Positions 44,422 to 64,000 of a stretch of 64,000 nt of DNA are shown piece after piece (within the stretch, counting starts at the first letter, position 1; each line of letters opens with the position of its first letter). The notes under the pieces are model-generated. The model did not search any database and had not been told where the DNA came from. It saw only the letters and a list, made by a program, of their open reading frames with translations. This DNA is from Balanoglossus misakiensis (Eukaryota > Animalia > Hemichordata). The translations under genes and the position numbers were made by a program. Where the stretch lies: the NCBI GenBank assembly GCA_040954595.2, contig CM082589.2, forward strand, positions 11,172,894-11,236,893, in the 5' to 3' direction.

Positions 44422-44571
44422 AAAAATGAAAAAAAATCCATGAGGTCTCAAAATGAATACACACCAATTTCTAAAGCAATTTGACCAGTTTCCACCAATT
44501 TCACATTGGTCCCAGTGGTAGATAGACATATACGAAATGGGAACCAAAGAATAAAACACATTTCAAAGATT

Positions 44572-44887
44572 TAACACATCTTTTTCCTCAAGAGTGTTTT
44601 TCAAATCTTCTCCACATCCTTCAAAATCGCCACCATAAAGCCATATTACTTGTAGTGCTTATGTTTGTCATATCTAGGTGATGCATACCACTATAGATGT
44701 GTACCCTTTGTATAGAGGCAGATTAAACAGGTGTGGTACCTGTTAAATATCTGACTTCTTTAAATTACAGCCACAATCGTCAGTCAACAAGATGTTCATG
44801 TAGATGTATACCTAGCAGTAAGCTTATTTAGATTGACAAATCTTAGATGAAAATAATGAAAAAGTGGCACAACCCTTAGGGCTTTAA
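44572..44887 (+). mobile_element. TTAA-site MITE, copy 1 (one end deleted)
   Basis: Homologous to 50920-51292 (aagccatattacttg; cagtaagcttattt; ends aaaagtggc...ggctTTAA). Confidence 0.6.
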
Positions 44888-45694
44888 CTAGCAGCTTTAT
44901 GCCAGATGAGTTCGAGTCTAACGATGTAATGTTGACATTAAGGTTTCATTGAAATAACTTGGGAACCTCTCTACTATTTGAAGCACCAAAGCTGTGAAAA
45001 ACTTCCTTCTTTCCCTGAGTTTTTTATGAATATGTTCTAATCTGGGACAACAATTTGTTGCCAAGTGTCTTGACCCCTTTACCAAATGTCAGGGACCGGA
45101 TTTTTTTCAGCAAAATTTCAAATAACCTTGGCTGATTTTTTACCTACTTTCACATATTGGGTAGCATGAAACAAAGTATGGCTTCCAGAAGGGTTATAGA
45201 TACAGTGTTTTGTAATAACAAGAATTAACATGAAACTATAATTTCATGGTTAATTTAGGACCGCCTTAATCTATGGTAATGTCATTAAATATTTGCATAT
45301 CTAATTGTAGGCTATCCAGTGGAGGGAGAAACCTAAACATGGACAACATTGGGGTCAAAATTGTTTGACAGAACTTTGGGTGACTTTGGGTAAACCTTGA
45401 CCAACATTACTATATCTTGGCATCCAGAGCAGATGCAACCTTGACACTTGGAGTGATGGAAATGCATAATGGAGTATTATGTCTCAGCTAGTCACAGTGC
45501 TTTTGCTGTGTTTTATGTCTTTTATTCAGCCAAATTAGATGTTTTTTATTACACATTGGATGTGTTTGCCAGTACTTTTTAGCTGGTCACACTGCCTTAA
45601 GACAATGTATTCTCAAAATACCATGCAATCATTATAAAGCATATACAGCAGACAAAGTTATGGTATGATTGAACTTGCCCTTCTTTGTGACTAA

Positions 45695-45910
45695 AGCATG
45701 ACCGGCCTGTCTTAGGTGGCCCCTACCTAGGGGCTTTACCCGTCATTGGCTCACAGTCTGAGAAATCAGCTCTGCAGGGAAGTTAACGATGTAACCCACC
45801 ATTAAAGCTTGGATTTCCGCTTTTTGTATCTGATGCCTGGCTGAGGCCTTCTTAGGATCTACCCAACGCTGAGTAGGCTATCCCGTCATTGGCACACAGT
45901 CTCAGGGAGG
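45695..45910. ncRNA. Candidate structured RNA with two related stem-loop motifs (45704-45759, 45845-45902); family and strand unresolved
   Basis: Shared frame ggcc-YKtcttagg-[variable hairpin]-cccgtcattggcWcacagtct. The central hairpins differ in sequence yet both pair. Only 2 mismatches in ~240 bp versus the right-arm copy. Confidence 0.55.
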
Positions 45911-45964
45911 GAGTCCAAAGTTCAGTATACCAGCAAAGCCTTTATATTGTCCATTCTTTTTAAG

Positions 45965-46057
45965 AGAAGGCTGGCTGCTGTAGAAAAATGTTGATCTCAA
46001 ATGTATCATGTCCAAAAAAAGGCAGACTTCCAGCCCTATTGGTTAGGCTGGCATTAG
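45965..46057 (+). other. Candidate non-coding exon
   Basis: Acceptor ccattctttttaag| and donor |gtatgt. The mirror copy (61606-61696, minus) has donor |gtaagt and is 2 nt shorter, so reading frame is not kept. An upstream donor at 45663 (gtatga; mirror gtaaga) defines a 302-nt intron in both arms. Confidence 0.45.
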
Positions 46058-47049
46058 GTATGTACATAATTAATGAGGCAAGACATAATATTCCATTACA
46101 TAGTTCCATAACTCCAAGTGTCAAGGATGTATCTGTGCCGGATGCCAAGATATAGGAATGTAGGTCAAAGTTTACCCAAGATCACCCAAAAGTTTGTCAA
46201 CAGATTTTGACCCCAGAGTTGTCCATGTCCAGGTTACCACATCCACTAGAATAAGATATGCACATATTTAATGAGGTTACCATAGCTCAAGGGGGTCTTT
46301 AATTAACCATCAACATTTAGTTTCATATTAATGCATGTTAATATAATACACTGTATCTATAACCCTACTGGTAAGCCTAGAATTAGGTACATGCGAAAGT
46401 TTTTGACAAGATAGATAAGTTGTAAAATATGTACATGAACCTGACAATTGACTTAAAATAACATAAGGCAGACTTGATACTTATCGGAGATAGATACTAA
46501 TAACAACAGTGATGTTAATTACACTGGGAATGTTTGTCTTATTATAGCTACATGTAAAAGACTGCTTGAGGTAATGTAATTAAAGTGACCACTTGCGATT
46601 CACCTTCAAAGTGCTATGCAAGTCTACGGTACATTGTTTTTCCAATGATTGGACAAAGGATATTCATAATGTGTAATTAAGGCTGGATAGCATTTTCAAT
46701 GTAATAAGCCCTGCCTTCACTATAATCTTACGCCAAATCAACATTGTTCAATTTATGTTAATAATTTCACTAAGGGATACTTGTTACATCAAATTTCCCA
46801 GCAAGGGGTGTCAGATTATTGGGCAAGTGGCATGCATGACACTAGACGATACTTTTGGAAGCAAAGCGGACAGAACACGGCTGGATATAGACTAGGTAAT
46901 TCTGAATGTGACCATGAACTGTACCACAGACTCTGTATTGTATGTTTCTGAAGAATCCCATTTAACCCAGACATCAACATACTTCAACCTTGTAAGAAGT
47001 AGAACATACATGATTTACTAGTAAATATTTGCTAGGTTATTACACACTT

Positions 47050-47975
47050 TGGATTACACAAAAATAGGTGTGTACACCGCTGTGACATTGCCAAGCAGAT
47101 ATGACCTACCAGGTAACCTAATACAATTTCACAGGAATCGGAGTATTTTCAGTGAAAACAACATTTCTTCAACAATGACAAAAACTGCCTCAACCACAAA
47201 AATTCAGATATCAACAAATCCAACAATATCTCACTTCAATCACCACAAGGAACATGCCTACCAAAATTGAAAGCAATTTGACATGCGGTTTCAAAGAATA
47301 CAAATTGCAAAAATTGCCTCAAGACCACAAATATGCAAATTTCACCAAAATGATATACAACATTACTTGGGTTACCTCATGGAACAAGCAAACCAAAATT
47401 TAAATGCAACCTGACCTGACATAGAGTTTCAGAGAAAATGATTTTTGACCAAAAATGACAAAATTACATTTCCCAAAAATTACAAATTTTGCCACAATTT
47501 AAACAATACTAACAAAGATTACCTATAGGAAATAGCTTACTAAATTCTAGATACAATTCACGATATTAGCTGAAAGTATATCAGGCGTGACATAAGCTAC
47601 ATGCATACAAATGTTCAAAGCAATCTGACCAGTTGTTGAGTTTCTGAGTTTTGATCAATTTCACATTGCTCCAGGTAATTAGCATATTTCATTTGAACAG
47701 GCGTGCCTGCATCTAAAAACCCAATATCAAGACTTACCACACAGACTCTGTATTGTATGTTTCTGGAGTAATCAAATAAAACCAATCATGAAAATACTTC
47801 AACCTTCTTAATATGAACAAAATCCTATTTACAGGCTGGCCTACATCTACACACCAAATATCAAGGGGATACGCGAAGGGGTTTTCAAGTTTTTGATGTG
47901 GACAGACATACATACATCCATACATACTACATACACACATACAGAGGCAACTGACTGGTCAGAAGGCATGAGCAA
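47050..47975 (-). mobile_element. Degraded HINE-like element shared by both arms
   Basis: Same type of internal repeats as 42290-43246 (aaatatgcaaatttcacc, aaagcaatctgaccag, tttcaagtttttgatg) followed by an ACAT microsatellite at 47901-47943. Counterpart at ~58290-59100. Confidence 0.55.
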
Positions 47976-49659
47976 AAATGCAGGAAATCAATGTTGTGAC
48001 ACTGGTAGTAGGCCTTAATGTATACAATATCAAGACAGTTTATTTAACATGAAGTTTGATATGTTCATAATCATTCAGAGCTAAGCATATTTTGAAATTG
48101 TAAAATTAATATCAATCACATGAAAACTGACAGCATGCTTTCATTTGGGAATTTAGGTATTGTAATTAACACTAACAGTCATGAAACTATTGAATCGTCA
48201 ATAAAATCATACAGTAGAAATTAATGGGTTTTCTATTTATATGCGATGTGAAAATGCAACTTGTGGTCCTTCGGCCAGTAAGAGGCATCAGATAATATTG
48301 TAAGACCCAGTTGCCCAATTGATTAGACCTACATGTATGCGCTGTGTGAAGCGCAAGTTATGGCAACTGAATTCACAGGACACTGAAGAAAGTGGAATCA
48401 CTCAAGGTACATATGTATACATGTAGGCTAACAATCACAACACAGAGAATAGTTCTCCATATTCATTTTTAATACGATAAGATTCACTGAATTGGCGCAT
48501 CCATGGGCAGGCAAGGTTAGTTCCAACTCAATCAGGCCCATGTATCTTGTTCCCTGAGACTGTCTGCTTCTAATAATAGCTGTAAGAACATAATCGTTGA
48601 CCGAATGGTTGGTTCAATTTTGCGACATTTTATGATTTCAAGCTGTGCAATATTTGCAACTCAGTTTCAACTTTGGTTGGAGGGATGATGATGAAGCAAT
48701 TTCACTGACAAAATAGCACTACTAACTGACGTCAATATTTGTTCAAAGTTAAATGCATTGCCATCAGAAAAATGTTTACGAAAAGTTTCGTATGTGAATA
48801 ATAACACTTTTTCGCATAACTGCAAACCCTGTCACAGTTGTGAAATTCTAAGAAAATTCATTCATTAGGTAGAATTCGTGCTTTATGAATTCTTAAACAA
48901 ACTTAGTCATGAAACCTAAATGGTTACCTTACACATGTGGAGGCTCGACTTCTGTGATATGATAGTCTTTAATTAATGTGTATGTGATTCAATACAAATC
49001 CATATGATTACCTGAACATACAAAATAAATTAAAAATAAATACATAAATTAAAAATAAATAAGTATCTCATACATATGCATAAGTGCTTGTGAGAAATAT
49101 ATCATATATCTAAATAAACCTGTCATTTATTGACCTCATTTTCCCAGTAAACCAAAGGACTAAATTGCACTTTAATATTACAGCTTCATTTCAATGCAAC
49201 AGGTACACTACATCATAAGGGAACAAATATGCCAGCTCAACATTTATATAAACAGTGTCAAAATATAAGTGGCTACAAAAGCTTGTGTCCCTTCAATCCA
49301 TTCTCCCACTCAGGTCAAACGTGTTACATATTAAAATTGCAATGTGCATAATATACAATTAGTCTTTTGTAAATTCAGACTGAGAAAATATGACTGATAA
49401 ACATTATCTGGCACATGTTGGTGAATGGCTGGCGTTGATGTTGTGGGTTGAAATCCGAACTATGATTATCGCGGGTACAAATCACATTTATTTTCTCAGA
49501 GACAACACGTTTGCAACTTCGGGACAGAAAGGTGAAAACGAACGTCATTAGTTCTTGGGAAAAAACTCTGAAATCAATTTCGGTGAGGTCAAATGTGTTC
49601 CAAAGGCAAACCGTTTCTGGTAAACAAATCAATGGCAAATAGTTACTTCGGCGACTTAC

Positions 49660-49865
49660 CAATCAATCAACATGGCTGCCAAATCGTTGGATATCCCGGT
49701 TTCATCTCGCGATCATTCTATCTTCCGATATGGCGTTGCTTGGTTAAATTCGTCTCTTCTTTGCCGACATAGTCGGGCGACAGCGGTCCAGAAGCATATA
49801 CAGCGACGCCATCTTGTTTACAATGTGAAGTATCAACTGCGCATGCTCAATGGTTGTTGATTGGA
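49660..49865 (-). promoter_or_regulatory. CpG-rich promoter and first-exon candidate, left copy, facing outward
   Basis: NRF1-like tgcgcatgc (49838-49846), YY1 motif caagatggcg on minus (~49807-49816), tctcgcga (~49706), an opposite-strand YY1-like aacatggctgcc (49669-49680), and a minus-strand donor G|gtaagt after 49660. Confidence 0.55.
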
Positions 49866-50919
49866 AAGTGGGCAGAGCCTGCAAGATCCAGGGTTCGCTT
49901 GACCGGCCAAACGCGGTTATTCTCCCTGGACCAAATCATTTAAGCGTCAGGCGTAATACATCACATAATTGACTGGAAAACTAAACAGTCTTCCACCTAT
50001 ATATCAACACAGTTTATTAAACCAGCACCCGCGCAAATATTTACAAGTATATGATTAAAATTGATCAAATCATTAATCGCACGGTTACAGCTGTCATAGT
50101 TTCTAATAATATTATTCACTGGTAGCGCTGACATACCATGTTGAAACTTGTCGCGGAAAACAAGATAATTGATCTTACGGTGTCATTTGTTTTTAAAAAG
50201 TGCTTAATAACTATTGATCCCATTGATATATTTTTCCATATTTATATATTTTTCGCAAAGTTTGACTGCTTGGGCTACTAATAGCATGGTAATCACAATG
50301 GATTTACCACCTCCCAGCTGCGTTATAAAAGAATGCCTATTCTGTGGACACTAGCCTCATCGAAGACCGAACGTGTTCATCGATGTTTCCATTCATGACG
50401 AATCCAATGCAGGCGTCGCAGTCATTCTGGCTTTCACGCTGTGGGCACCTCTGGTGACAGCAATTCCCAACAAGTTGCGGGTAAGTAATCACACAACCTA
50501 TATGAGTGAAAGTTTCTTGTCATTTTCGCAACGTCAAGGTTGATATTCTCTTCTTGGATCGAAAATGTGTGACACAACAAATGAATATGCGTGGCAGGGT
50601 CGGCTGTGTCTTTTGCTTCGAGGCATAGTCGTCAGACACACATCCCTAACACGCGAAGCCAGCTTATCCTTTGATCAAATGGCAGCGCTATTCTAAATAT
50701 TTTACAGCATGCCCTAAAGGACAAACACGTGCCGCTGGAAGAGGCCAAAACTCAGCAGAGACGGCAAGATGTTAACGGAGGTGAGCCCCAACAATAAATT
50801 AATATTGTTCCTTTTATTTAGAAAACGCCGCATAATTAGCCAACCAATCATGGTTATGAGAAACCTCCAAAATACAATGTATCGATATTTACTGCATCTG
50901 TTCATACTTCGCCCGCGCT

Positions 50920-51292
50920 TTAAAAACCCTATAGCTGCTAAAATTGGCATATTTTTTTCCAGAGTAAAATACTTCATATGTATATTCCCTATTCCCTAAA
51001 ATCTTCACCCGTGACCATTAAGCCATATTACTTGCATTTGCATTGGTTTGTCATCACTTGGCGTCGCATTTCACGATAGCTGCTTAGCTGCTATTGTTTG
51101 TATGAAGGCTGATTAAATCGGTGAGGCACCGTTTTAATACATAGCATGTTCCAATTGCAACATGCAGTCACAATCGGGCATCGATAAGATGTTTATGTAT
51201 ACCTATCAGTAAGCTTATTTTGATGAACCAATTTAAGTTGGAAAATAAAATCATGAAAATAATGCAAAAAGTGGCAGCTTTGGAGGCTTTAA
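50920..51292 (+). mobile_element. TTAA-flanked MITE (~370 bp, Kolobok-like termini), copy 2
   Basis: TTAA at 50920-50923 and 51289-51292. Degenerate TIR aaccctatagctgc / gcagctttggaggct. Internal homology to 44572-44887 and 62740-63048. Confidence 0.65.
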
Positions 51293-51322
51293 ACTACAGT
51301 TCTCCCAAATTGTCTTGACTAA

Positions 51323-51473
51323 ATGACATACATGTGGTCAAAAGTTCTGACTGCAGAAGAGGTTGCAGCTCTGGCGGGGGACTGTTCAATTGGAGGAAAT
51401 ATATTTACATGGAATACAGACAATATTGAAATGGCAGCAGAAATAGTTCCTACTGAAAAGAATGCTATCTGCA
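51323..51473 (+). pseudogene. Isolated 3' part of a pentraxin/LamG-like domain exon
   Basis: YMWSKVLTAEEVAALAGDCSIGGNIFTWN resembles the pentraxin C-terminal pattern W-x-x-x-L-[ST]-x-x-E-[IV]...C...G-N-x-x-x-W. Phase-1 donor A|gtgagt at 51474. In-frame TAA immediately upstream and no partner exons recognised. Confidence 0.55.
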
Positions 51474-52355
51474 GTGAGTATCACAACTTTAAAATGAAAG
51501 ATTTTGCAAATTTAAAAAAAATATTGAGTGTTTTGACATGCGTCAGTGGTCAGTAACACACAAGCTGCATGATAAGAGGGTCACGAGAAATTGTAAGCCG
51601 CAATGTATAATGGATTAACTCCATGACCTATGCGACCTACGAACTGTGACGTACAGAATTTATTTCTACGTGTAATGCGGTCTGCGGCAGTGAGCCACAG
51701 ACCGCATTGCGAGAGCAGTGAGAATTCACCACAATGCAAACTTTCTGAACGTAGGTTGATCTTCGAATGAAATATTACCTTGTCACCGGTTTTCCACATG
51801 GCTACACTGTAAAATTGGGTGACGTGTTCGTTCACAAGTGGAATAATTGTGAGTAGTAAAGCACGCGAAGTTAAGCAACGAGCACGTTTTGAAATGCGCG
51901 CAGATGATCCCAGTTTAGCAAATTCCATTGCGTGCATGCAAAAAAAATAATACTGTACCGGGGGTGAGCCTACTTTCTTTCCATACAGATACACGTATAT
52001 GTTGGTTAAGGTATGTGACAAACAGTTTTCATGTAACAGCCAGTGATGCTGACCATAAAACCAGCGCAGCTGATGCTTTCATCTACAATTTGCAACATGG
52101 ACGTTTGTGTCTCTGCATGTGTCGTGCATGTTACTGCTGAACAAAAAAGATATGCGGGCACCACAGGCTGGCGAAAGCGGTGCTCACGTGCTCTGCAAGC
52201 TGATGTTGTCACTAAATTGGCAAAGTATTGTACACATGGAGGAGTTTCTTGAGCTGTCTGTTGTATAAATGTCGGTTGTGAGTACATTATTTTTTATTTT
52301 ATTTTAATAATTTTCAAAGCCCCTATGATTGAAGCATATTATTACGACTCATCCG

Positions 52356-56099: not shown

Positions 56100-56333
56100 A
56101 CACCGCGCGCGCGCCGTTGGCAAAAAAAAACGCGGAAAATTATTGAGCATGCGCAGTCGATACTTCACATTGTAAACAAGATGGCGTCGCTGCCTATGCT
56201 TCTGGACCGCTGTCGCCTGACTATGTCGGCAAAGAAGAGACGAATTTAACCATGCAACGCCATATCGGAAGACAGAATGATCGCGAGATGAAACCGGGCT
56301 ATCCAACGATTAGGCAGCCATGTTGACTGATTG
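56100..56333 (+). promoter_or_regulatory. CpG-rich promoter and first-exon candidate, right copy, facing outward
   Basis: cgcgcgcgcg, cgcggaaaa, gcatgcgca (NRF1-like), caagatggcg (YY1, 56177-56186), tcgcgaga (56281), donor G|gtatgt after 56333. Gap-free mirror of 49660-49851. Confidence 0.55.
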
Positions 56334-57788
56334 GTATGTCGCCGAAGTAATTATTTGCCATTGATTTGTTTACCAGAAACGGTTTGCCTTTGGAACACAT
56401 TTGGCCTCACCGAAATTGATTTCAGAGGTTTTTTCCCAAAAACTAATGACGTTCGTTTTCACCTGAGTGCGAGGATGGATTGAAGGGACACAAGCTTTTG
56501 TAGCCACCAATATTTTGACACTCTTTATATCAATGTTGAGCTGGCATATTTGCTCCAATATGATGTAGTGTACCTGTTGCATTGAAATGAAGCTGTAATA
56601 ATATTACAGTGCAATCTAGTCCTTTGGGTTAATAGGAAAACGAGGTCAATAAATGACAGGTTTATTTAAATACAGGATATATTTATCACAAGCACTTATG
56701 CATATGTATGAGATACTTATTTATTTTTAATTTATTTTTTATTTTTTATTTATTTTGTACGTTCAGGTAATCATATGGATTTGTATGGAATCACATACAC
56801 ATTAATTGAAGACTATCATATCACAGAAGTCGAGCCGCCAGATGTGTAAGGTAACCATTTAGGTTTCATGACTAAGTTTGTTTAAGAATTCATAAAGCTA
56901 CCCAATGAATGAATTTCCTTAAAATTTCACAAATGTGACAGAGTTTGCAGTTGTGCAAGAAAGTGTGTATTATTCACATAAGAATTTTTTCGTATGCATT
57001 TTTCTGATGGCAATGCATTTGACTGTAAACAAATATGGATGTCAGTTAGTAGTGCTATTTTGTCAGTGAAATGGCTTCATCATCATCCCTCCAACCAAAG
57101 TTGAAACAGAGTTGCAAATATTGCACAGCTTGAAATCATAAAATGTTGCAAAATTGAACCAACCCTTTGGTCAACGATTATGTTCTTACAGCTATTATTA
57201 GAACCAGACAGTCTCAGGGAACAAGAGACATGGGCCTGATTTGCAAGTTGAGTTAGAACTGCCTTTGCCTGCCCACGGACGCCCCAATTTCAGCAAAAAT
57301 TATTGCATTAAAATATGAGTATGGAGAACTATGCTCTGTGTTTCTTTTGTTAGCTTACATAGCTGTTGTCATTCTAGTTTTTCCTCTGTCCTGTGAGCAG
57401 AGTTTCAGTTGCGAAAACTGACAGTTCTCAAAGTACAAAAGTACACCTAAATTGCCTCGGTGATGAGCATGCAGAATTTATCTGATGCTTCTTACTGGCA
57501 GAAGGACCCCACCAGTTGCAGATTGTGAATTCCATGGCACAAGGGAATTTACGCTTTGCGTTCAAATATAAATAATTAAATCCTGTAAAATTATTCTATA
57601 TGTTATTTATTGATGATTCAAAAGTGTTATGACTGATTGTGTTAGAGTACCTGTATTCCATATAAGCATGCTGTCAGTGCACATCCGATTGATAACAATT
57701 TCACATTTTTAAAAATTTGCTTCTCTGAATAATTATGAATACATAAAACTTCATATGATATAAATTGTCCTGATATCGTAAACATTAA

Positions 57789-58243
57789 ACCCCGATGCGT
57801 GGTATAAAAGACCCCCCAAATCAGTGGCGAATCTTAATGCCGTTTGACTGACAACAGACAACACCAACGATCTTGGCTCTAACGATCTTGGCTCTATGAA
57901 AATCGGCCCAAACAGATCCAAGCATAAAGAATTACACCACACAACGACAGTGGTTGGCTTTATAAACACACACAACATAAAGTTATCGATGAAAAAGTAC
58001 ACGAGCTTTTGAAACAACGATGATTTTGGGAGAAATCTGGTTTCAGTGCTTTTCAGAAGCATCCCTGGGAAACAATAACCACGCCATTCAAACAGCTGTC
58101 AATCGCATAGAGGTGTAAAGTGTTCAATTATTTTCTATGTACATGAGATCAATTACACAGTTATTATGCACGACGACCACTCCCAAATAAACAACTGTAC
58201 AAACACACGTTAATCCGAACCCCAGTACTTTCCGCACCGGGGT
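57789..58243. mobile_element. 455-bp non-autonomous DNA transposon with TTAA target duplication
   Basis: TTAA|accccgatgcg ... cgcaccggggt|TTAA (10/11 TIR match). The left arm has a single TTAA at the homologous site (48015-48018). Confidence 0.85.
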
Positions 58244-58291
58244 TTAAGGCCTAATGCTAGTGTCACAACATTGATTACCAGACCGTTTCCC

Positions 58292-58414
58292 TATGTATGT
58301 ATGTATGTATGTATGTATGTATGTATGTATGTATGTATGCAGCCATGTATGCATGTGTTTGTGTGTGTGTGTACATGTGTGTCTGCATGTTACATGTATA
58401 TATGGATGTATGTC
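58292..58414. repeat. (TATG)n/(TG)n compound microsatellite of a HINE-like element
   Basis: About 12 perfect tatg units followed by tg-rich sequence; mirror of 47901-47943. Confidence 0.88.
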
Positions 58415-59350
58415 TGCCCTGATCCAAAACATGAAACCACGCTTTTTGTATTTTGGTGTGTAGATGGGATTTTGCTTAAATGAAGTTGTCATTGCAAAAA
58501 TACGCAAATAACCTGTGAAATATGTGGAATTGATCAAAACTCAACAACTGGTTAGACTGCTTTGAACATTTGTATGCATGTAGGTAATGTCATCATACCT
58601 GATATACTTTGAGTTTATATCGTGAATTGTCTATTTTTTATGCAATTATTTTGTCTTGTTTTACCATTTGAAAAAAAATCTTTTCCTCTTAAAGAGATTG
58701 GCTGATTTCTTTAGAATTTAGTATGACACTTCCGGTAGGTGATCATAGTTGGTTTTGTTTAAATTGTCGCAGAATTTGTAATCTGTCATTTTTGGTCAAA
58801 ATTCATTTTCTGAGAAACTCCTTAGATTGCTTTTAAATTTTGGTATGCTTGTTCCAAGAGGTAACCCAAGTAATGGTGTATATCATTTTGGTGAAATTTA
58901 CATATTGTGGTCTTGGGGCAATTTTTGCAATTTGTATTCTTTGAAACTACTAGTCAGATTGCTTTCAACTTTGGTAGGCGTGGTGATTGAAGTAGATATT
59001 ATACAATTTGTTGATAGTTGGATAGATGTGGTTTGAGGCAGTTTTTGTCATTGTTGAATGTTGTTTTCCCTAAAATACTTGTCTGGTTCCTTTGAAATGT
59101 TCTTACAGAAGGTCATATCTGCTTGCCAATGTCACATGATTTTTCCCATGAACACAGACATACCTAATTTTGTGTAATCCCCAGATGGGACCACAGTGTG
59201 TAATAACCTGACCAACAGTGACTAGTATATCCTGTGTGTTATACAGTACTTCTCACAAGGTTGAAGTACATGTAGACTGTTGATGATTTTTTGCGATTCT
59301 TCAGAAACTTACAATACAGAGTCTAATGTGGTAACGTCCATGGTCACATT

Positions 59351-60738
59351 AGTCCTGTTTCAAAATGACCTACATTACACGTCCTATACACATGTATTGC
59401 ATGTTTTGATTGGTTTATCCGCTTCTCTTAGGTCCACTTGCGGCACGCTGATTGGAGGGACCTTGTAGGTTAGGTCTTATTATTATGTATTATTCACTAG
59501 ACCTTGTAGGTTAGGTCTTATTACTATGCATTTTTCGCTTTACAGCTCCCTGATTGGTTAACGTGTCAGTCTGGTCCCCCATGTGTTCACTGCCTCATAA
59601 TACAGGACCTTGTAGGTTAGGTCATATTAATATGTATTTATTCACCATACAGCTCCCTGATTGGTTAACGTGTCAGTCTGGTCTCCCAGTGTTCACTGCC
59701 TCATTGTGAAATGTCCCATGTGCTTCCTGGCTAGCGTTGTGGTAACACATTATTCGGGATGTCCGCAGATCATTCATTAATTTTCTGAGAAATAGCCTGA
59801 CTGATACTATCTCCAACATAAACCGCACCCTGGAAAGATTAAATGATTTTTAGATGGACTTTGAAAATCTGATTAACACATCTAAGCATTTTTGCTAACA
59901 GTTGTATATTTTCTTAAATCACCCTCCTACTTCTCATCATCAATATTATTATTGTTGTTTTACTATTTTAAAGTAAATTTGTTTTGACGTAGATGTTGTG
60001 AAAAGGAGTACGTTGTCTGTTTATACATTCGTATATTGTTTTCATAAAAATGGAACTATGACGGTGCAGCTTCGTGAAAGAAGTACAATAAAAGTAATCA
60101 TACCTGTAAAGCAACTAATGAGGTATCCCAATTAAAGAAATGCAATGCTATTCTAAACAGTTCTATTGTAAGATATTTTTGGTTTGCTCGAATGAATAGC
60201 ACACACTTCGTATTCAGCCAGGTGTTACACGAAGTGATGCGCTGAAAAGCATTACGTAACAAAACACTAGCCCATTTCAACAAACCGCCACTGGAAATAA
60301 AATAAAAAAATTCTCCTGGCAATTTTTATTTCGAGTATCTAGTTCACAGTATCACAAAAAAATGCCATGAATAGTGAAGGAAAGGTTAAATCCAATCATT
60401 ATATGAGTGCCTTTCTTTATACACTGGGATCGAGCTTCGACAACGCGCAGGCAGCATGCCAGACAGAATACGACAACTGTATTCAGAAGGACAAAAGACT
60501 TTGCATAACGAGGCAGTGAAAATTGGAGACCTACACATTAACCAATCAGGGAGCTGTAAAGTGAATAATACATAGTAATAAGACGTAACCTACAAGGTCT
60601 AGTGAATAATACATAATAATAAGACCTAACACATAAGGTCCCTCCAATCACCGTGCCTCAAGTGGACCTAAGATTACCAGATGGACCAATCACAGATGTC
60701 GGTACATATGTCATGGACCTGACTTATGAAACATGACT
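59351..60738. mobile_element. 1388-bp foldback-like non-autonomous DNA transposon, ~220-bp TIRs, ATT duplication
   Basis: cac-ATT|agtcctgtttca ... tgaaacatgact|ATT-cag. The left arm reads catggtcacATTcagaa (minus, ~46901-46917) without the insert. 59351-59572 is inverted to 60527-60738 and contains ~40-bp tandem units gaccttgtaggttaggtcttatta.... Confidence 0.82.
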
Positions 60739-61282
60739 ATTCAGAACTACCTAGTCTATGCCCGGCAGTGTTCTGTCCGCTTTGCTTCCAAAACTAATGT
60801 CTGGCCTCACTCATGCCACTTGCCCAATAAACTAATACCCCTTGCTGGGAATTATGATGTAACTAGCGTCGCTTTGAAGCCTATCACATTACTGAACAGT
60901 GTTGATTTGGTGTAAGATTATAGTGAAGGCAGGGCTTATTACATTGAAAATGCTACCCAACCTTAATTACACGTATGTATATCCTTTGTCTAATCATTGG
61001 AAAAACAATGTACATGTACCAAAGACTAAGTAGCTATTTGAAGGTGAATCGCAAGTGGGCACTTTCATTACTTAACCTCAAGCAGTCGGTTAGCTACCGT
61101 ATACTAAGACAAACATTCCTGGTGTAATTAACATCACTGTCATTAGTAATATCTATCTCCAATCAGTATCAGTTCTGCCTTTATGTTATTTTAAGTCAAT
61201 TGTCAAGGTTCATGTACATATATTACAGCTTAACTGTCTTGTCAAAAACTTACGCATGTACATGTACCTAATTCTAGGCTTA

Positions 61283-62476
61283 CCTGTAGGGTTAGAGATA
61301 CAGTGTTTTATATTAATATGCATTAATATGAAACTAAAATTTGATGGTTAATTTAAGACCCCCCTGAGCAATGGTAACCTCGTTAAATATGTGCATATCT
61401 AATTCTAGGCTATTCAGCTGAAGTAGAAACCTGGACATGGACAACTTCGGGGTCAAAATCTTTTGACAAACATTTGTGTGATCTTGGGTAAACTTTGACC
61501 TACATTCCTATATTTTAGCATCCGGAGCAGATACAACCTTGACACTTGGAGTGATGGAACTATTTGATTGAGTATTATGTCTTGCCTCATTAATTATGTA
61601 CTTACCTAATGCCAGCCTAACCAATAGGGCTGGAAGTCTGGCTTTTTGGACATGATAAATTTGAGATCAACATTTTTCTACAGCAGCCAGCCTTCTCTTA
61701 AAAAGAATGGACAATATAAAGGCTTTGATGGTATACTGAACTTTTGACTCCCTCCCTGAGACTGTGTGCCAATGACGGGATAGCCTACTCAGCGTTGGGT
61801 AGATCCTAAGAAGGCCTCAGCCAGGCATCAAATACAAAAAGCGGAAATCCAAGCTTTAATGGTGGGTTACATCGTTAACTTCCCTGCAGAGCTGATTTCT
61901 CAGACTGTGAGCCAATGACGGGTAAAGCCCCTAGGTAGGGGCCACCTAAGACAGGCCGGTCATGCTTTAATCACAAAGAAGGGCAAGTTTAGTCTTACCA
62001 CAACTTTGTCTGCTGTATATGCTTCATAAAGATTGCAGAGTATTTTGAGAATACATTGTGTTAAGGCAGTGTGACCAGCTAAAAAGTACTGGCAAACACA
62101 GCCAATGTGTAATGAAAAACATCTAATTTGGCTGAATAAAAGACATAAAACACAGCAAAAGCACTGTGACTAGCTGAGACATAATACTCCATTATGCAGT
62201 TCCATCACTCCAAGTGTCAGGGATGTATCTGTGCCGGATGCCAAGATATAGGAATGTAGGTCAAAGTTTACCCAAGATCACCCAACATTTTGTCAAAAGA
62301 TTTTGACCCCAAAGTTGTCCATGTCCAGGTTTCTACCGCAACTGGATAGCCTAGAATTAGATATGTACATATTTAATGAGGTTACCATGGATCAAGGCAG
62401 TCCTAAGTAAACCATCAAATTTTTAGTTTCATGTTAATTCATGTTAATATAAAACGCTGTATCTCTAACCCACTGG
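61283..62476. repeat. ~300-bp inverted repeat pair (61283-61582 / 62177-62476) enclosing the core, right arm
   Basis: gggttagagatacag vs ctgtatctctaaccc; gatcttgggtaaactttgacctacattcctata vs tataggaatgtaggtcaaagtttacccaagatc. Confidence 0.92.
61751..61966. ncRNA. Mirror copy of the candidate structured RNA (motifs 61759-61816, 61902-61957)
   Basis: agactgtgWgccaatgacggg-[hairpin]-cctaaga(c)aggcc twice, separated by a third hairpin gaaatc..agct-ttaatggtg-ggtta-catcgttaa..agct-gatttc. Confidence 0.55.
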
Positions 62477-62739
62477 TATGCCATTCTGTGTTTCATGCTA
62501 CCCAATATGGGTAAGTAGGTAAAAAGTCACCCTAGGCCATTTGAAATTTTGCTGAAAAAATCACGTCTCTTACATATGTACATTTGGTAAAAGGGAAATT
62601 TTAATCACGGAGTAGAACATATTCATAAAAAATATTTGAGGGAAAGAAGGAAGTTTTTCATAGCTTTGGTGCGTCAAATAGTAGAGAGGTTCCCTTGTTA
62701 TCCTTAGACTCAAACTCAGAGTTTCCAATCTTTCAGTAT

Positions 62740-63048
62740 TTTCATGATATTACTTTCCATCTTAGATTTGTTCATCTAAACAAACTGACTGATAGGTATA
62801 CATGAACATTTTATTGACTAATGAATGTGCCTGTATGTTGCAATTTAAAGAAGTCAGATATTAAACGAGCGCCACACCTGTTTTAATCAGCCTCCATATG
62901 GAGGGTACACATCGCAGAGAGATGACAAACCCCATGCAAATTCAAGTAATATGGCTCAATGGTGCTGATTTTAAAGGATAGGTGGATGATTTGAAAAATG
63001 TTATTGTGGAAAAAGATGTGTAAAATTTGGCAGCTTGTGAGGCTTTAA
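62740..63048 (-). mobile_element. TTAA-site MITE, copy 3 (mirror of copy 1, other end retained)
   Basis: Ends ggcagcttgtgaggctTTAA (63048), matching the terminus at 51273-51292; contains caagtaatatggct. Confidence 0.6.
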
Positions 63049-63679
63049 TTGTAAAATCTTTGAAATGTGTTTTACTCTTTAGGTCCAATTTTGTATATGT
63101 CAATATACCATTGGGACCAATGTGAAATTGTTCTAAACTCAGAAACTCAAGAAGGTACTGGTCAGATTGCTTTAGAAATTGGTGTGTATTTATGTTATTG
63201 AGACTTTATACAGATTTTATTTTTCATTTTTGAAGTATATTTTGGGGTGATTTTGGTCGTCATATACTCAGAAACCTCTACCCACATTTTTTTTAAAATT
63301 TGGTTTGCATGTTCTTAGGTGTGATTTTATGACAATTTAACAAACCCAGTGATGGAAGTGACAATATTTTTTTTTTTTTTTGGCAATTACTGCCATTTTT
63401 GTCTGATTGCTTTGCAATTTAGTTTGCAGTTTCTAGGGAATTCTTACTGTGGTGCACAAAATTCACAAAGGTGATTTACTATCCTCATGCGCTTTGTTGA
63501 ACTGGCACCCTGTTGCAAAACAGACATTACAACACTCTTTGAATTGAATTCATAGCTACCAATTTTTCGGGGGTGTAGCACCTTTTTTATGCCTAAAACT
63601 TTGATCGAGAACTTCAAATTAAATGCAACCCTCCAAATATTTGCAATATTTCAGGTATAATGATTTAATTTTAAAGCAT

Positions 63680-64000
63680 AAATTATGATGTATTCATAAT
63701 CATTAAGAGAAACACATTTTGAAAATAGAATATTAATCACACTAGCAGTCATAATACTTTTGAATCATCACTAAAGAACATATAGAAAAATTAAACAGGT
63801 GTTAATTATTTATATTTGAACGCAAAGCGTAAATTCCCTTGTGCCATGGAATTGACAATCTGCAACTGGTGGGGTCCTTCTGCCAGTAAAAAGCATCAGA
63901 TAAATTCTGCATGCTCATCACCGAGGCAATTTAGGTGTACTTTTGTACTTTAAGAACTGTCGGTTTTCGCAACTGAAACTCTGTTCACAGGACAGAGGAA
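63680..64000. repeat. Third copy of part of the arm unit, same orientation as the left arm, running off the window
   Basis: 63803-64000 is the reverse complement of 57381-57580 with about 5 differences. 63680-63800 matches 48050-48230 more loosely. Confidence 0.88.

Follow-up and report, generated by a model that had tools for sequence, protein, structure and literature searches.

Constitutive transport elements (CTEs) are RNA hairpins with a loop recognised by the mRNA export factor NXF1 (TAP); they bind NXF1:NXT1 without adaptors, each loop independently (PMC4330390). In vertebrates the element lies in intron 10 of NXF1 as a single hairpin. Its internal loop is 6x6, the two loop strands starting at a distance of about 36 nt, and it has conserved flanking stems and a word resembling a 5' splice site beside the loop (PMC4338338). 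According to that paper, NXF genes carry CTEs in mammals, zebrafish and coelacanth, mammals have none elsewhere than in the NXF family, and fly and worm have none; it describes all known cellular CTEs as single-loop, places those with sequence homology in vertebrate NXF introns, and gives the two-loop form as thought to be viral in origin. In type-D retroviruses (MPMV/SRV) an internal duplication has produced two NXF1-type loops shortly before the 3' end, and the viral repeats, about 72 nt apart, pair crosswise in one rod, described as two-fold symmetric in PMC4330390. Engineered reporters with the NXF1 CTE in direct tandem show a strong gain in export, two cellular loops performing far better than one (PMC4338338, PMC6478720), with 33-fold over background for two and 3-fold for one (PMC6478720). 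In the literature searched, mostly at the level of listings and abstracts and with few subscription papers, neither a doubled cellular CTE beyond NXF genes nor an invertebrate CTE came up. In humans, minisatellites that bind TAP and functional cellular CTEs lacking sequence similarity have also been described.

The element described here occupies positions 45695-45910 of a 64,000-nt window, the whole stretch of DNA that was analysed; all coordinates are positions in this window and the element is read on the minus strand. It is a duplicated, conserved structured RNA motif with covarying apical stems, and its two hairpins almost certainly descend from, or are, CTEs. Since the motif itself is known, the surprise is its setting: what appears to be new is a tandem CTE outside NXF1, in a multicopy and likely non-coding unit. 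A cellular genome would here have relocated the CTE into a separate multicopy unit that appears to be non-coding, and doubled it in a different geometry, which supports a host origin of the signal. The features of the locus are collected in Table 1.

Table 1. Positions of the tandem CTE element, its second copy and the surrounding signals in the 64,000-nt window.
Feature	Position	Strand	Description
3' CTE unit, intact	45705..45751	-	GCC-AAUGAC-GGGU / apical stem GCCCCU-AGGGGC / ACCU-AAGACA-GGC
5' CTE unit, degenerate	45846..45893	-	loop AAUGAC/AAGA-A (C missing); fourth pair A-U, not U-A
Linker, weak predicted hairpin	45752..45845	-	z +0.61 (45763-45842); tolerates indels
Second tandem CTE copy	61750..61970	+	units 61766-61817 and 61909-61958; within inverted duplicate 56142-63231
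TATAAAG, TATA-like box	45940..45946	-	about 35 nt before the element; identical in both copies; putative promoter role
CCAAT-like box	46038..46042	-	identical in both copies; putative function
Acceptor-like word (U-rich, CAG)	45978..45988	-	picked by eye; kept in both copies; below acceptor score 11
Conserved block around AATAAA (45521-45526)	45463..45600	-	candidate poly(A) signal
Left arm of ~300-bp inverted repeat (MITE-like)	45180..45484	.	80% identical to right arm; encloses 596-nt island
Right arm of inverted repeat	46081..46377	.	repeat comparison
Block with AAGATGGCG, which we take to be YY1-like, and donor-like G/GTAAGT after 49660	49530..49851	-	96% identical between copies; candidate promoter and first exon
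Candidate internal exon, 84 nt	48928..49011	-	alignment and conserved donor; open frame in copy B, stop in copy A
Duplicated unit	44422-49851 and 56142-63231	inverted, head-to-head	repeat comparison

The preliminary description of this DNA had noticed two minus-strand motifs with wholly different apical stems that still pair. Both were found as described, at 45893-45846 and 45750-45705 with starts 143 nt apart and apical stems CUACUCA/UGGGUAG and GCCCCU/AGGGGC. That description had called the RNA unidentified, which no longer holds: AAUGAC/AAGACA, enclosed between GCC/GGC and GGGU/ACCU, constitutes the loop of the CTE. The 3' unit has an exact AAGACA, named as the conserved CTE loop word in PMC4330393, opposite AAUGAC. 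The 5' unit has closing strands GGGA/UCCU above the loop and is a degenerate rather than a canonical CTE, because the C of AAGACA is missing in both window copies. The word resembling a 5' splice site is present in the 3' unit (G/GUAAA), lost in the 5' unit, and present as G/GUAAG in the 5' unit of a diverged paralogue described below. As in the vertebrate intron, the strands of each loop start at a similar spacing, 34 and 37 nt apart in the two window units.

Several lines of evidence carry the identification. The minus strand of the element has exact words of 16, 14, 13, 12, 12 and 11 nt in common with the CTE of retroviral locus L057, the 16- and 13-nt words falling in the 3' unit, while the plus strand shares no word of 7 nt or more with that CTE and the remaining window none of 11 nt or more. 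Among 2,000 shuffles the longest word in common with L057 was 13 nt (3 of 2,000), and none reached 14 nt. The doubled CTE of L057 stands behind an env frame (PF00429, E 2.6e-117) and agrees with the CTE printed in 10.1101/2020.03.20.000869, which contains both core words, each twice; CTE primers are given in PMC4330393 and PMC3669200. Cellular evidence comes from metagenome locus L029. There, an exon encoding a match to human NXF1 (E 5e-5, best match 3RW6; PF24048 at E 4.5e-6, below the family cut-off) is followed by a donor site and, about 900 nt into the intron, by a hairpin identical to the 3' unit at all 15+13 core positions. This placement corresponds to that of the CTE in intron 10 of vertebrates (PMC4338338).

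L057 was retrieved with a pattern from the element, and its match is therefore partly circular; the same applies to viral locus L058 and metagenome loci L012 and L029, all fetched with element-derived patterns, so that 11-12 plus 7 nt of each match exist by construction. Free of this circularity are the continuation of the matches past the pattern, the agreement of L057 with the CTE in print, and the place of the L029 hairpin in an Nxf1 intron. Of 30 metagenome loci holding the two core words, L012 and L029 extend the match well past the pattern and 28 are background; of 28 loci from the viral pattern scan, L057 and L058 carry the doubled CTE and 26 are background. A 20-nt pattern had no match in viral contigs, and the full core pattern none in prokaryote genomes.

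Two of these loci merit a note of their own. L029 (1-99 and 1001-1049) presents an NXF1 LRR exon and then an intron that contains one canonical, single-loop CTE, in metagenomic DNA that looks animal; about half of the exon's residues match human, and the locus is possibly another invertebrate Nxf1 CTE. Compared with protein representatives, its 33-aa exon returned four long repeat-like proteins. The hairpin of L012 (566-620, minus strand) is likewise a canonical single CTE; its 1.6 kb of sequence show no evident NXF exon, and it may lie deep inside an Nxf1 intron or outside Nxf1.

A covariance model, R2, was built from non-viral rows only: the 3' unit of the window, L012 and L029. It finds exactly four sites in the window and scores the 5' unit, which lies outside its training set, at 29.1 bits (E 6.6e-6), above the best of the pattern-selected background loci (25.2 bits). 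Three of the four viral units score 36-40 bits; the second unit of L058, at 20.4 bits, falls within background. A 19-nt pattern across the 5' strand likewise occurs four times in the window, in two units of two copies, and in 0 of 100 shuffles. In the three rows 33 of 33 cells pair, with seven invariant core pairs and four apical pairs that change on both sides, counts that refer to three rows from which the structure itself was read. The covarying, duplicated stem-loop proposed earlier is borne out. An Rfam scan, suggested as a check on novelty, returned no match for the element: there were none at gathering score in the whole window, none in 48350-49950, and one chance match (E 6.9; no snoRNA or snRNA) when the element was searched by itself. 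Among the six loci scanned there was one chance match and none for the true CTE hairpins of L012 and L029. Because these hairpins also give none, the missing Rfam match is no sign of novelty.

The strand was resolved by the pairs themselves. G-U pairs on the minus strand would be A-C mismatches on the plus strand, and in the paralogue a C-G pair becomes a U-G wobble at 45876/45859, so the minus strand is the correct one, as the preliminary description had favored. The same comparison bears on two suggestions made there, a plus-strand H/ACA guide for 18S rRNA and a U4-like kink-turn RNA, which we regard as scarcely credible. In an H/ACA RNA one hairpin is followed by the H box and a second by ACA, each box lying 14-16 nt from a pocket, and an ACA does follow each hairpin on the plus strand; when folded, however, that strand does not form the hairpins of the element, and the flank containing the ACA is absent from L012 and L029. 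A U4 kink-turn consists of a C-stem, a 3-nt bulge and tandem G.A/A.G pairs that immediately adjoin the C-stem. Although GCCAAUGA resembles U4, as the preliminary description pointed out, one or two extra bases stand between GA and GGC, and the loop is 6x6 or 6x5. For either suggestion the best Rfam score was the chance match just given, and the conserved core is accounted for by the CTE on the other strand. Readings as a SECIS element, C/D box RNA, ribozyme, telomerase RNA or U17 were dropped after the CTE match.

Both hairpins appear in the free MFE fold, with loops closed by CC/GG below and by GGGU/ACCU (in the 5' unit GGGA/UCCU) above. The overall folding energy of the element is no better than that of shuffles (z -0.67 for the minus and +0.83 for the plus strand), and the individual hairpins reach z -1.0 to -1.7; as folding energy alone is unremarkable, the signal consists of sequence conservation and compensation. 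Of the third hairpin claimed between the motifs, a weak predicted one exists, but it is not above chance and other versions of the element carry indels there (a 3-nt deletion at 45810 and a 2-nt insertion behind 45822). The predicted geometry departs from that of the viral CTE. Tandem folding of the window element is predicted at -67.8 kcal/mol and crosswise pairing at -54.4, 13 kcal/mol worse, whereas the L057 control prefers the crossed form (-39.5 against -30.0 kcal/mol), in agreement with the published rod. The window element has in common with type-D CTEs two NXF1-type loops, identical words and a place shortly before a 3' end; it differs in that its more widely spaced repeats form separate predicted hairpins with unrelated apical stems. 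From the vertebrate NXF1 CTE it differs in having two loops, one of them degenerate, in being multicopy, and in lying where no NXF exon was found in the scanned frames; and from the engineered tandems in being natural and long-diverged. As a case provided by nature, it also lends itself to testing whether the NXF1:NXT1 dimer platform put forward for the symmetric viral rod (PMC4330390) would serve two hairpins that stand apart.

The island might also serve a mobile element for the export of its own RNA: either a solo LTR or a non-autonomous element of the retro or DNA type could have captured and doubled a host CTE as type-D retroviruses did. The order CCAAT, TATA, CTE, AATAAA resembles U3-R-U5, the established anatomy of an LTR, and the element is multicopy. 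However, the island between the inverted arms starts with TG and does not end with CA, no target-site duplication was recognised by eye at the ends of the island or of the arms, and the scanned frames contain no env or pol. The longest frame in 42000-64000 has 165 aa, and 0 of 300 frames reach a Pfam cut-off. Moreover, the window copies share kilobases of flank and therefore arose by segmental duplication. We consider a mobile-element origin quite improbable.

The near-invariance reported for the element was reproduced: 45692-45932 differs at 2 of 241 positions between the two window copies, compared with 46 of 305 and 31 of 297 in the inverted-repeat arms alongside, and 45695-45910 at 1 of 216. 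Conservation is selective even at close range. The element (1 of 224) differs from the adjoining spacer at 45601-45691 (10 of 91) with p 2e-5 between copies A and B, and the block around AATAAA (2 of 138) differs from the same spacer with Fisher p 0.002. Outside the element, the 596-nt island is 4-6% different between copies and the arms 10-15%; since the whole island of about 600 nt is more alike than the arms, partial gene conversion may contribute.

The island exists in at least four versions. Sequencing contigs from two studies hold the element, and one of the studies adds two more versions. Contig depth of the element over its flank was about 2 in run X3 and about 10 for one contig in X1, ratios that are not copy numbers. 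A diverged paralogue, whose linkage was deduced from equal depths and single contigs, has 12-14 changes over about 120-135 nt (about 10%), of which 3-5 changes and at least one gap are unlisted. In its 5' unit a double change at 45857 and 45881 restores a U-A pair, a compensated pair; the paralogue also has the wobble mentioned above and the word GGGUAAG.

These data also bear on the view that the element is a non-functional relic, a piece of an Nxf1 intron captured between inverted repeats, spread by segmental duplication and homogenised by recent conversion. Its position would fit, since MITE-like arms enclose it and the duplicated region around them is rich in repeats and borders a satellite, as would the loss of the C and of the splice-site-like word from the 5' unit and the greater likeness of the whole island than of its flanks. 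Against this, a conversion tract would need to skip a 91-nt spacer between two conserved blocks, the listed changes in the paralogue fall in the linker, bulge or apical parts or are compensatory (3-5 changes being unlisted), and the two units keep 12+7 core bases although their apical stems have turned over completely. A relic seems an unlikely account.

We consider it probable that the tandem CTE hairpins serve as the direct export signal of a multicopy, likely non-coding polyadenylated transcript. This reading builds on the observed CTE match in sequence and structure, the strand, the predicted tandem folding, the selective conservation and the absence of an NXF domain from the scanned frames. 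The hairpin was presumably taken from an Nxf1 intron and then duplicated, long ago to judge from the apical stems, which share no sequence. Transcription would be by RNA polymerase II, in a short form as an unspliced unit of about 420 nt from CCAAT/TATA to AATAAA; alternatively a spliced RNA may start near 49830 and have the island as its last exon, and the acceptor-like word could place the start of that exon in the block upstream of the element. On the minus strand the tandem hairpins would likely bind NXF1:NXT1 directly, the RRM-LRR domains of NXF1 contacting the AAUGAC/AAGACA loop, and the RNA would leave the nucleus without splicing-linked adaptors. Export would be much stronger with two loops than with a single one; full binding is expected of the 3' loop, whereas the 5' loop, lacking its C, may bind weakly. 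The element is more likely a cis-acting protein-binding element in a longer transcript than a stand-alone small RNA of 215 nt. If expressed, it would indicate that a non-coding RNA carries a signal dedicated to export or to titration of NXF1.

Reading frames in both candidate transcript forms are short. No NXF domain was found in 81+94=175 sense-strand frames of at least 28 aa around both copies, in a scan that detected the L029 control exon and would miss shorter or decayed exons, or in 125 further frames. The island contains no ATG frame over 22 codons, and a guessed spliced form none over 47. The lack of longer ATG frames in the island is also compatible with titration: the island could be a small multicopy gene whose Pol II product is essentially the tandem CTE itself, little more than two NXF1-binding loops, acting as a decoy that tunes global mRNA export. 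Such an RNA may titrate NXF1 and dampen bulk mRNA export, or keep NXF1 in store (in oocytes or during stress, for instance), and would mean that the Nxf1 CTE was doubled in a cellular genome separately from the retroviral doubling. The conserved island spans the CCAAT- and TATA-like boxes to AATAAA neatly and exists in several versions, and excess CTE RNA outcompetes mRNA export in Xenopus oocytes (PMC7551171). The upstream exon-like blocks, however, share in the duplication and the conservation of the island, a pattern that suits a longer transcript, and one of the two loops is degenerate. We judge the decoy rather unlikely and prefer, as the simplest reading, an export signal of a non-coding RNA. 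Because the evidence for promoter, splicing and polyadenylation consists of matches to consensus signals, and because the first donor and three acceptors chosen by eye score below the threshold, the host model is inferred. RNA runs X7, X11 and X10 yielded 0, 1 and 0 reads, too few to test expression.

Several further features of the region were observed. CpG observed/expected, one of the grounds for the candidate promoter at 49530-49851, is 0.74-0.93 in 48000-52000 and 0.27 in 46000-48000; the value of 0.62 for the non-satellite part of the window weakly suggests invertebrate animal DNA. Segments 48500-48750 and 48900-49300 are 91-96% identical between copies, with neighbours at 60-75% and no Rfam match. 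A 13-nt complementarity joins an upstream exon-like block (57208-57220) to the 5' flank of the element (61753-61765), and recurs in the other copy at about 48553-48565 and 45897-45909; it is one of three such 13-mers and could pair in a spliced RNA or be due to chance. Copy B carries an insertion at 59378-59744 and 60469-60721, with 41- and 106-bp repeats in inverted, MITE-like arms. Between the two units, 51323-51553 (plus strand) weakly matches pentraxin (PF00354, at E 0.0009 short of the cut-off) and may represent an exon or a remnant. Part of a third unit copy, inverted relative to 57381-57764 (94% over 262 nt), occupies 63670-64000 and continues beyond the window. At the other end, positions 1-42036 consist of an AT-rich satellite of 78-79 bp with 27-bp part-units and longer periods of 105, 183 and 261.
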